Shown here in pieces: positions 36,292 to 38,057 of a stretch of 64,000 bases of DNA. The position numbers and the translations under genes are program-made. A model generated the notes under the pieces. The model worked only from the letters and a program-made list of their open reading frames with translations. It was not told the origin of the DNA and did not search any database. Source of the DNA: an uncultured Bacilli bacterium (lineage in GTDB: Bacteria; Bacillota_I; Bacilli_A; RFN20; CAG-631); contig CANQFQ010000002.1 of NCBI GenBank assembly GCA_947599835.1, forward strand, positions 35,402 through 99,401, given 5' to 3'. Each line of letters begins with the position of its first letter. The stretch's first letter is position 1.

Positions 36292-37977
36292 TCAATTTTT
36301 GGTAAATGTTAAAGTTGCTTCTTCCATCGAAATATTATCGATATGAATCGTATATTCAATGGGTGATAAATCATTAAAGATTGCTTTAGCATTTGAAAAA
36401 TGATTAAAAGATGTTAAAAAGTTTTTAGGATCAAAAGAACTACCTTCTTTAAATAATGTCTTATCGTCTGCAGTGCTTCCAGTTTTAAAAGTATTTCTTC
36501 CATTCGATTCCAATAAATGAATCAAAACATTGTCATCATAAGAATAGGAACGCGTGTTAGAATGGGCTAAATCAATTAAATAATTACTTTGACTAGGTTG
36601 TAAACGATCGGTATATTGAACAAAATAATAATCTCCTCTAGAATTTGGCTCAAATTCGGCTAATCGAGAATCAATATGATAAATTTTTATACCTGGTTGT
36701 GTAAAGTGTTGTAGTCCGTTTGCATAAGGTGCTTCAGCATCTTTAGCATTAAGGCCGGTAGGCGTTATAAATTCAATGAGTAGATATTCATCCATTGCGG
36801 TATGATTCCAAGTGTTATCATGAATTAGAATACAATCTCCACTCGATTCAAAAGGATGAATCGTCAGGGTCGTATTTCCTGTAATAATGGTTGGCATTGT
36901 CCATCCTAATAGCATTTTTGAATATGCATTATGATCACCAATGTTATAATCCATCATATCGACACCCCCACAAGGGCCAAAATTATCATCGCTATCGTAA
37001 GTATAATAATCATCTAATCCTAAAATATGTCCAGATTCATGAATAAATGTATGCGCATCAACAGCAGGTTTTCCATCTTTTATGTAACCGCCTTCATACA
37101 TATAATTTATACTTGCCCAAGCATAGGTATAAGCACTCAAATCACTACTTTCGTTTTCATAATCCCAATAAGTATATGCCCACCAAAGATCACTGTCGTA
37201 TGAAAAATCATGATCATAAACTAACCATACGGCATCGACAAATGAATCATTGTCTTGATCGAATTGATCGAGATCATGATATGTATTTTGATACCAACGA
37301 ATCGCTTGTCGAAGAACATAAAAAGTGGCATCTCCGTAAGTGTTTTGTTTGGAAAGAGATTCGAATTGTTGGACGGTTTTATCCAGCGTAAACCAATCAC
37401 TTACTTTTCCTTTTAATTTAAGTTTACCATAACTTGATTTATAGTAAAAACTACTTACCGATTCCCAACCGGTTACACTAGGATCTCCAAAAAATGTTTT
37501 TTCGATATCTGTTTTTACAGCATCGCATCCACCATCCATTGTTCTACATACAGAACGTGTGTTCTTATCGGAAAATTGTACAGGAATCACTAAAATATTT
37601 TGTTCCCCTACTGTGTAAGGATCATCATAATCAAGGGTATTGCGATAATCACGGTAACTAAAAGAAAAGGTTTCCGGAGTATAAAAGTTATCGCCATTTT
37701 TTTCAGAAGTGCTTTGTTGAATGGTCACACTACCAAAATCAAAAGCAAAGTCAGCATCACTTGCTTTTTCACCACTTTGCGCTTGTTGTGATGAAGAAGA
37801 GCTTTGTTGAGAGCTAGATAAAGTAGATGATGATTGCTGAGAACTTGAAGAAATAGATGAATCACTACTTGAAGAAAAATGATTGGATTGTGTATTTGAT
37901 GTTGATTCACTTTGCGCTTGGCAACCTAATAGAGAAAATGATAAAAGTATTGGAACTATATAATTTCGTTTATTCAT
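36292..37977 (-). CDS. secreted lipoprotein metalloprotease, M6 (immune inhibitor A)-like, with Ser/Gln-rich stalk
   Basis: signal peptide and lipobox LLGCQ; low-complexity SSSDSSISSSSQQSSSTLSSSQQSSSSSQQ; HExxH zinc motif FIHESGHILGLDDYY resembling InhA HEFGHxLGLPDEY; start ATG 37977 with GAGGTGG RBS. Confidence 0.6.
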   Translation of the reverse strand: MNKRNYIVPILLSFSLLGCQAQSESTSNTQSNHFSSSSDSSISSSSQQSSSTLSSSQQSSSSSQQAQSGEKASDADFAFDFGSVTIQQSTSEKNGDNFYTPETFSFSYRDYRNTLDYDDPYTVGEQNILVIPVQFSDKNTRSVCRTMDGGCDAVKTDIEKTFFGDPSVTGWESVSSFYYKSSYGKLKLKGKVSDWFTLDKTVQQFESLSKQNTYGDATFYVLRQAIRWYQNTYHDLDQFDQDNDSFVDAVWLVYDHDFSYDSDLWWAYTYWDYENESSDLSAYTYAWASINYMYEGGYIKDGKPAVDAHTFIHESGHILGLDDYYTYDSDDNFGPCGGVDMMDYNIGDHNAYSKMLLGWTMPTIITGNTTLTIHPFESSGDCILIHDNTWNHTAMDEYLLIEFITPTGLNAKDAEAPYANGLQHFTQPGIKIYHIDSRLAEFEPNSRGDYYFVQYTDRLQPSQSNYLIDLAHSNTRSYSYDDNVLIHLLESNGRNTFKTGSTADDKTLFKEGSSFDPKNFLTSFNHFSNAKAIFNDLSPIEYTIHIDNISMEEATLTFTKN

Positions 37978-38011
37978 TTTATCCACCTCGTTTTCTTCTA
38001 CATTATAATCC

Positions 38012-38040
38012 TTTTTTTGATAAAATTCAATTTATTTATA
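38012..38040 (-). promoter_or_regulatory. sigma-A promoter TTGAAT-17-TATAAT for protease lipoprotein gene (minus strand)
   Basis: reverse complement TTGAATtttatcaaaaaaaggatTATAAT; -35 overlaps palindrome 38036-38057. Confidence 0.5.
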
Positions 38041-38057
38041 AATTGAAAAGCGTAACG
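38036..38057. promoter_or_regulatory. 22-bp perfect palindrome TTCAATTTAT-TT-ATAAATTGAA (candidate operator)
   Basis: 10-bp arms exact reverse complements separated by 2 bp; left arm overlaps -35 of protease promoter; between divergent protease and yneF genes. Confidence 0.4.

Follow-up and report, generated by a model that had tools for sequence, protein, structure and literature searches.

What does an exact 22-bp palindrome do when it lies across the promoter of a gene for a predicted surface protease? The question is raised by a 64,000-nt window of contig CANQFQ010000002.1 (the whole stretch of DNA analysed; all coordinates are counted from its first letter), which derives from an uncultured, gut-type Bacilli lineage of low GC content (31.5%) and encodes, on the minus strand, a 561-amino-acid (aa) lipoprotein resembling the M6/immune inhibitor A (InhA) zinc metalloproteases. 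We lean, if only slightly, towards reading the gene product as an M6-type surface protease and the palindrome as the operator of a dimeric factor encoded elsewhere, more likely a repressor.

The promoter palindrome and its conservation

The promoter, TTGAAT-17-TATAAT, was the best-scoring sigma-70-like site in 35700..38600, matching at 10 of 12 positions (a perfect -10, and 4 of 6 positions of TTGACA at the -35), and its hexamers, its spacing within the 16-18 nt range and its distance to the start codon are those of a sigma-70/SigA promoter, as which it is predicted here. The first five bases of its -35 are the end of the palindrome's right arm, so that the arrangement given in the initial annotation, a -35 embedded in an exact 22-bp palindrome, was found as described. 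With transcription placed ~7 nt past the -10 (a predicted start near 37995), the dyad is predicted to span about -52 to -31 and to be centred near -41.5, and dyad symmetry overlapping core promoter elements in this way is characteristic of an operator.

The gene order parE-plsY-yneF(divergent)-M6-orphan-tkt is common to five species. The sister species, represented by loci L020 and L050-53 (five contigs), has PlsY and YneF proteins 79% and 91% identical to those of the window, and four-fold degenerate sites that are 30-38% identical, approximately what composition alone gives; these sites are saturated, and neutral DNA has therefore been randomised between the two species. The collinear blocks conserved in the spacer between yneF and the M6 gene are the ribosome-binding site (RBS) and promoter of yneF, the M6 -10 (ATTATAAT), the M6 RBS (CGAGGTGGAT), TAAATTGAATT and TCAATTTA. 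Measured from the ATG, TAAATTGAATT lies at -57 in both the window and L020, and TCAATTTA at -69 and -71, respectively, with promoter geometry in L020 identical to that of the window. The sister species thus keeps both 8-bp arms, TCAATTTA and TAAATTGA, in the corresponding position over the -35 (there TCAATTTAATTAATTAAATTGA), where they again form a perfect 22-bp palindrome, with halves TCAATTTAATT and AATTAAATTGA, over the same TTGAAT; its centre lies at ~-42.5 in L020, compared with ~-41.5 in the window, both counted from the predicted -10. The left arm is the sole conserved block without a conventional promoter role, and its conservation is therefore the main argument that the dyad is functional.

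The spacer between yneF and the M6 gene is 231 bp long in the window versus 141 bp in the sister species, a difference of ~90 bp; the palindrome lies ~105 bp from the yneF promoter in the window and ~15 bp from it in L020. Because its register with the M6 promoter is kept while its distance to the yneF promoter has changed by ~90 bp, the dyad belongs to the M6 promoter. The additional spacer DNA (~38048..38150) holds a second AAATTGAA half-site ~80 bp upstream of the dyad, which may be due to chance (p ~0.07, a rough estimate) or may be an auxiliary half-site.

All five sister-species contigs are identical to one another at the dyad, and a second contig of the window's own species (L049, 99.46% identical) matches the window there and adds no variation. 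Scans of genome and metagenome collections returned no relatives between 64% and 99% identity, and the footprint is therefore only two species deep. It nevertheless strengthens the idea of an operator, which is partly supported by it, and to which a protein would be predicted to bind.

The encoded lipoprotein

The automatic open reading frame listing places the gene at 36292..37986 (minus strand) with a GTG start. That GTG falls within the ribosome-binding site GAGGTGG, and the ATG at 37977, 5 nt 3' of the site, yields a protein of 561 aa, the same length as database entry P0001. The N-terminus, MNKRNYIVPILLSFSLLGC, shows a positively charged N-region, a hydrophobic core and a lipobox (LLGC, residues 16-19, 37921..37932) whose terminal Cys falls inside the first ~35 residues. 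Leu at lipobox position -2 is less common, but the PROSITE rule permits it. Almost every homologue inspected starts with a similar signal peptide whose last residue is Cys, and in most of them a Ser/Thr-rich stretch comes after the lipobox. On this pattern, the protein is probably lipidated at Cys19. The minus-strand reading frame with its lipobox is present as first annotated, and the Ser/Gln-rich linker, then put at about 45 residues, measures 50.

The zinc-binding motif HESGHILGLDD sits within FIHESGHILGLDDYY. Residues H313, E314, H317 and D323 are invariant across 53 relatives, as are M341 and M342 of the DMMDY motif; these two residues lie 18-19 positions past D323, and the motif is by its sequence position a candidate Met-turn. 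Against NCBIfam, the protein matched the M6 domain TIGR03296 at E=2.8e-25 over profile positions 4-275 of 286, a nearly full-length zincin match of the kind that the initial annotation had called for. Placement in the core of family M6 is opposed by the score of this match, 89.8 bits versus a curated cut-off of 110.8, and by PF05547 (Peptidase_M6), which did not match the 561-aa protein; its Pfam search gave solely sub-threshold matches, to other metzincin families. PF05547 was matched by 15 of the 53 close relatives (best E=2.2e-7).

Searches of PDB sequences with the single protein or with a 53-sequence profile did not find InhA, the profile recovering the snapalysin zinc site alone (E=0.03), and the link to M6 required a structure model. 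An AlphaFold2 model of residues 72-561, built from the 53 relatives, was confident (predicted local distance difference test, pLDDT, 93.2; predicted template modelling score, pTM, 0.93) and has the InhA catalytic-domain fold of family M6. The family is large, with >2,000 matches among 8,000 candidates scored, and some members already carry the Joint Genome Institute (JGI) label "M6 family metalloprotease-like protein". Taken together, these results support the 561-aa protein as a distant branch of the M6/InhA metzincins and not a core M6 member: the proposed resemblance holds as a distant relationship in profile, fold and zinc motif, but falls below the curated M6 cut-offs. The protein is predicted to act as a zinc-dependent protease.

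Operator, enhancer or chance

Functionally, we posit an M6-type (immune inhibitor A-like) zinc endopeptidase, anchored at the cell surface, that would be exported by its lipoprotein signal peptide, held off the membrane by a Ser/Gln linker of ~50 residues, and catalytic through its HEXXHXXGXXD zinc site. Its gene would be transcribed from the strong SigA-type promoter TTGAAT-17-TATAAT with a leader of ~18 nt (counted from the predicted start), and the 22-bp dyad would be a genus-specific operator, bound by a dimeric transcription factor whose gene lies in another part of the genome; a repressor seated there would block the access of sigma region 4 to the -35. A centre at -41.5 is compatible with repression and class II activation alike, and a repressor is somewhat more likely than an activator because the core promoter is near consensus.

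Considered by itself, the palindrome is modestly improbable (p ~0.02) and not exceptional. Of simulated spacers matched to this one in length (231 bp) and composition, 1.6-2.6% contained an exact palindrome with arms >=10 and a gap <=8, and the whole window contains 12 such loci versus 2.4 +/- 1.4 in dinucleotide shuffles, approximately five of the 12 being terminators. The statement that such a palindrome is unlikely by chance thus keeps its direction but is weaker than first put. Nor is the sequence scattered as a simple repeat, the outcome that the initial annotation had named as damaging to its proposal, since it is unique in the 64 kb. No further copies of the full palindrome with up to 3 mismatches, no further half-sites with up to 2 mismatches and gaps of 0-9, and no TCAAT/CAATT dyads with gaps of 4-16 were found in the window and the fetched loci. 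BLAST of the yneF-M6 spacer against the window found no other copy, on which a mobile repeat or miniature inverted-repeat transposable element (MITE) was rejected, and no Rfam family reached its gathering score anywhere in the 64 kb. A literature search for the arm sequences returned unrelated primers and an Acinetobacter EppR probe only.

Several observations weigh against an operator. The 8-bp half-sites lie 4 bp apart in the window and 6 bp apart in the sister species, and a rigid dimer would not tolerate a 2-bp change in half-site spacing without co-evolution. One part of the right arm owes its conservation simply to being the -35 box, and the dyad is absent from three other, more distant syntenic species (L001/L044, L045-47 and L021/L054), among which L045 retains only ACAAT-N10-ATTGA and the L021 orthologue has an unrelated palindrome, AAATTATATA-T-TATATAATTT, over its -10. 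AT-rich perfect palindromes are moderately common, with 7 non-terminator loci in the window, and a second copy of this one with up to 3 mismatches is absent from the 64-kb window. Finally, no regulator gene lies within ~5 kb of the M6 gene, which bears out the earlier remark that none is adjacent. Of the dimeric repressor operator first proposed, the operator gains from arms that are conserved in the sister species and are no dispersed repeat, but is weakened by the 2-bp difference in spacing and the absence of the dyad in three species; the evidence fits an activator too, and a repressor is only graded the likelier of the two.

A more far-reaching extension, which we regard as tentative and would place somewhat short of an even chance, is that the dyad serves a regulator confined to a single genus of uncultured Bacilli that live with hosts and form spores. 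Such a regulator would switch a surface protease that faces the host, and perhaps further surface proteins encoded elsewhere in the genome; the difference in spacing, as a symmetric change of 1 bp per arm, would then record how operator and regulator co-evolved between the two species.

The competing explanations differ in what they make of the same promoter. Were the dyad to bind a class II-type activator of the Crp/Fnr-family or quorum-sensing type, contacting RNA polymerase at the -35, a symmetry centre near -41.5 in the window and -42.5 in L020 and a -35 with only 4 of 6 matches to TTGACA would both be accounted for, and the secreted M6 proteases of the Bacillus cereus group are indeed controlled by activators (inhA2 by PlcR, PMC2464732; InhA3 by NprR, PMC3325205). 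We nonetheless consider this unlikely, given that a promoter with a perfect TATAAT and optimal 17-nt spacing should fire unaided, that the PlcR box wTATGnAwwwwTnCATAw is not matched (PMC2464732) and that no activator gene is adjacent. To much the same degree we doubt that there is no dedicated regulator at all, with the upstream arm serving as an AT-rich UP-element-like enhancer and the symmetry arising from chance or from template-switch correction of a quasi-palindrome, as is common in AT-rich spacers. The nearly pure A/T of -38 to -52 would suit such an enhancer, and chance is favoured by the 12 exact palindromes (arms >=10) that the window contains, by the presence of perfect palindromes on other promoters (48812..48831 and the L021 -10), by the three syntenic orthologues without the dyad and by the lack of a second site in the window. 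However, a UP element needs A/T tracts and not the specific TCAATTTA, and the exact 8-mer, including its C, survives saturated divergence together with its mirror image. Symmetry that is perfect in both species despite a differing centre is likewise unexpected without selection on the dyad.

That same symmetry could also be read as a nucleic-acid structure, either a cruciform sensing supercoiling or a weak terminator insulating from antisense read-through, and a T-run does follow the hairpin (TTTTAT in the window, T7 in L020). We find this very improbable because the hairpin has little stability (-5.3 kcal/mol, whether as DNA or as RNA; z-scores -1.3 to -2.4), the gene upstream is transcribed divergently and a strong bidirectional terminator at 38444..38470 already serves plsY; in addition, the stem is not G+C-rich, and the site was not called in a terminator scan. 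Scarcely credible, in our estimate, is an on/off switch by homopolymer slippage in the promoter spacer, as in mycoplasma surface lipoproteins, to which the palindrome would be irrelevant. The 17-nt spacer (38008..38024) does contain an A7 run, and that of L020 (~2956..2972) a T7 run, and the gene encodes a surface lipoprotein in a Bacilli lineage with a reduced genome, but runs of 7 nt are short for efficient slippage and no length variation was seen either between the two contigs of the window's species or among the five of the sister species.

Genomic setting and known systems

Table 1. Positions of the features discussed, with strand and remarks on sequence and conservation
Feature	Position	Strand	Remarks
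126-aa orphan gene	35818..36198	+	Converges on the M6 gene; synteny kept in each of the five related species (31-72% identity)
M6/InhA-like zinc metalloprotease lipoprotein, coding sequence	36292..37977	-	561 aa; stop codon included
DMMDY, candidate Met-turn	36946..36960	-	Residues 340-344; both Met invariant (alignment columns M270/M271)
Zinc-binding motif HESGHILGLDD (HEXXHXXGXXD)	37009..37041	-	Residues 313-323; H, E, H and D invariant in 53 relatives
Ser/Gln-rich low-complexity linker	37771..37920	-	Residues 20-69; 26 Ser and 10 Gln of 50 (52% Ser, 20% Gln)
Predicted lipoprotein signal peptide	37921..37977	-	Residues 1-19; K3/R4, core IVPILLSFSLL, lipobox LLGC, Cys19
Ribosome-binding site GAGGTGG	37983..37989	-	5 nt before the ATG; CGAGGTGGAT kept in the sister species
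-10 hexamer TATAAT (predicted)	38002..38007	-	ATTATAAT kept in L020, its distance to the ATG unchanged
-35 hexamer TTGAAT (predicted)	38025..38030	-	17-nt spacer to the -10; TAAATTGAATT at identical offset in L020
Perfect 10+2+10 palindrome TTCAATTTAT-TT-ATAAATTGAA, candidate operator	38026..38047	.	Exact; spans 5 of 6 bases of the -35
Divergent yneF/UPF0154 promoter TTGTTT-17-TACAAT	38151..38179	+	Conserved blocks TTTATTGTACAATATTTCA and CTAAAACAA
SigK-like sigma factor	43842..44537	-	PRK05803, 299 bits
SpoIVB S55 peptidase, sporulation gene	57531..58541	+	Sporulation protein
Spo0A	58669..59496	+	Spo0A_C at 1e-43

Apart from a 126-aa orphan, the neighbours of the M6 gene are housekeeping genes: yneF/UPF0154, plsY, parE/parC, tkt, DUF896 and a GNAT enzyme. 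The regulators that the window does encode, a LysR-type protein, MraZ, Spo0A and the SigK-like sigma factor, are all distant from the gene (the SigK-like factor by ~6 kb), and none of the four has a known motif resembling the dyad. The orphan has no Pfam or NCBIfam match, and in these two collections it showed no sign of a DNA-binding domain that might mark it as a hidden regulator; it is restricted to its clade, with just 3 relatives retrieved from 5.8 billion proteins and 2 cluster representatives from a set of 1.84 billion, and its AlphaFold2 model was unusable (pLDDT 41).

Candidate boxes of known regulators were compared with the dyad and rejected. The PlcR consensus (wTATGnAwwwwTnCATAw / ATGhAwwwwTdCAT, PMC2464732) is absent from TTCAATTTATAAATAAATTGAA. 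In by-eye comparisons with consensus sequences, the CodY box did not fit (5 mismatches in 15), nor did the 7-1-7 boxes of Fur/PerR/Zur, ARG boxes, or CRP/FNR cores. A 15-nt exact match to the dyad, TTTCAATTTATAAAT, lies at 19047..19061, inside the LysR-type gene (18506..19381); it belongs to a compressed, imperfect dyad in coding DNA, with halves TCAATTTA and TAAATTAC, and was judged to be chance and not a further operator.

Other perfect palindromes were also noted in the window. A 20-bp one, TATTTATTATATAATAAATA (48812..48831), contains a TATAAT box and lies 37-56 bp upstream of the gene for a 1401-aa BspA-type leucine-rich repeat (LRR) lipoprotein (48868..53073), so that a perfect AT-rich dyad is found at this surface-protein promoter too. 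Two have 12-bp arms: TTTAGTAAATCTAGATTTACTAAA (9824..9847) within a DUF3137 reading frame (9230..10096), and TTTATAATAAAC-AA-GTTTATTATAAA (10115..10140) between dapA and that frame. A 10+5+10 AT-only palindrome, TTTATTTTAT-CATAA-ATAAAATAAA (14870..14894), is placed 27-51 bp ahead of the start of a minus-strand gene (13458..14843).

Because genes for a SigK-like factor, SpoIVB and Spo0A are present, the lineage is predicted to be, or to descend from, a spore former. Three further large lipoproteins are encoded at 3714..6386, 19448..21475 and 48868..53073 (all plus strand), two with leucine-rich repeats of the BspA type (up to 15 LRR_5 stretches) and the third with a metallophosphoesterase domain, which suggests a rich repertoire for host or surface interaction. 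A 446-aa ankyrin-repeat protein (1389..2729, plus strand) has an N-terminus that by eye is helix-turn-helix-like and no NCBIfam match; ankyrin repeats are unusual in free-living Firmicutes. Despite the presence of hisS/aspS and other genes typically controlled by riboswitches, Rfam gave no T-box or riboswitch match in the 64 kb.

In the B. cereus group, M6/InhA proteases act as virulence factors and break down antimicrobial peptides of the host, and a lipid-anchored distant InhA relative, widespread in uncultured gut and environmental Bacilli, may act similarly at the cell surface. The conserved dyad could further provide a cheap 22-mer bait towards its regulator in organisms that are not yet cultured. 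The value of the locus thus lies in annotation and in a lead for regulon discovery, and current understanding is left unchallenged.

InhA proteins are freely secreted, ~800 aa long, and carry VEG and MAM-like domains as well as a propeptide. The window protein is only 9-16% identical to InhA1/2/3 of the B. cereus group (M6; 4YU5/4YU6) and differs from them in its length of 561 aa, its lipid anchor reached through a low-complexity stalk, and its scores below the curated M6 thresholds. With respect to regulation, the systems to compare are the promoter-overlapping operators of dimeric helix-turn-helix repressors (MarR/TetR/Xre) and class II sites at -41.5, such as the Listeria PrfA box. Unlike these, the dyad matches no motif with which it was compared (PlcR from the published consensus; CodY, Fur/PerR/Zur, ArgR and CRP/FNR by eye), has no cognate gene found and differs by 2 bp in half-site spacing between species; like them, it is a dyad of ~20-22 bp that overlaps the -35 and is centred at ~-41.5. 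The zinc site, in turn, is nearly identical to that of snapalysin (M7) and the Asp-zincins (HEXXHXXGXXD; PMC3890501), aligning to snapalysin as HEtGHvlGLdDYY. In the B. cereus group, PlcR acts on inhA2 via a palindromic box (PMC2464732), and InhA3 belongs to the NprR regulon (PMC3325205). PlcR activates transcription and has a defined regulon, with 28 boxes (PMC2464732), whereas the dyad has no ATG...CAT core and is a single known site. Like the PlcR box at inhA2 (PMC2464732), however, it is an AT-rich palindrome upstream of a sigma-A -10 at the gene of an M6 protease, and PlcR, as we propose for the factor acting here, is encoded elsewhere.

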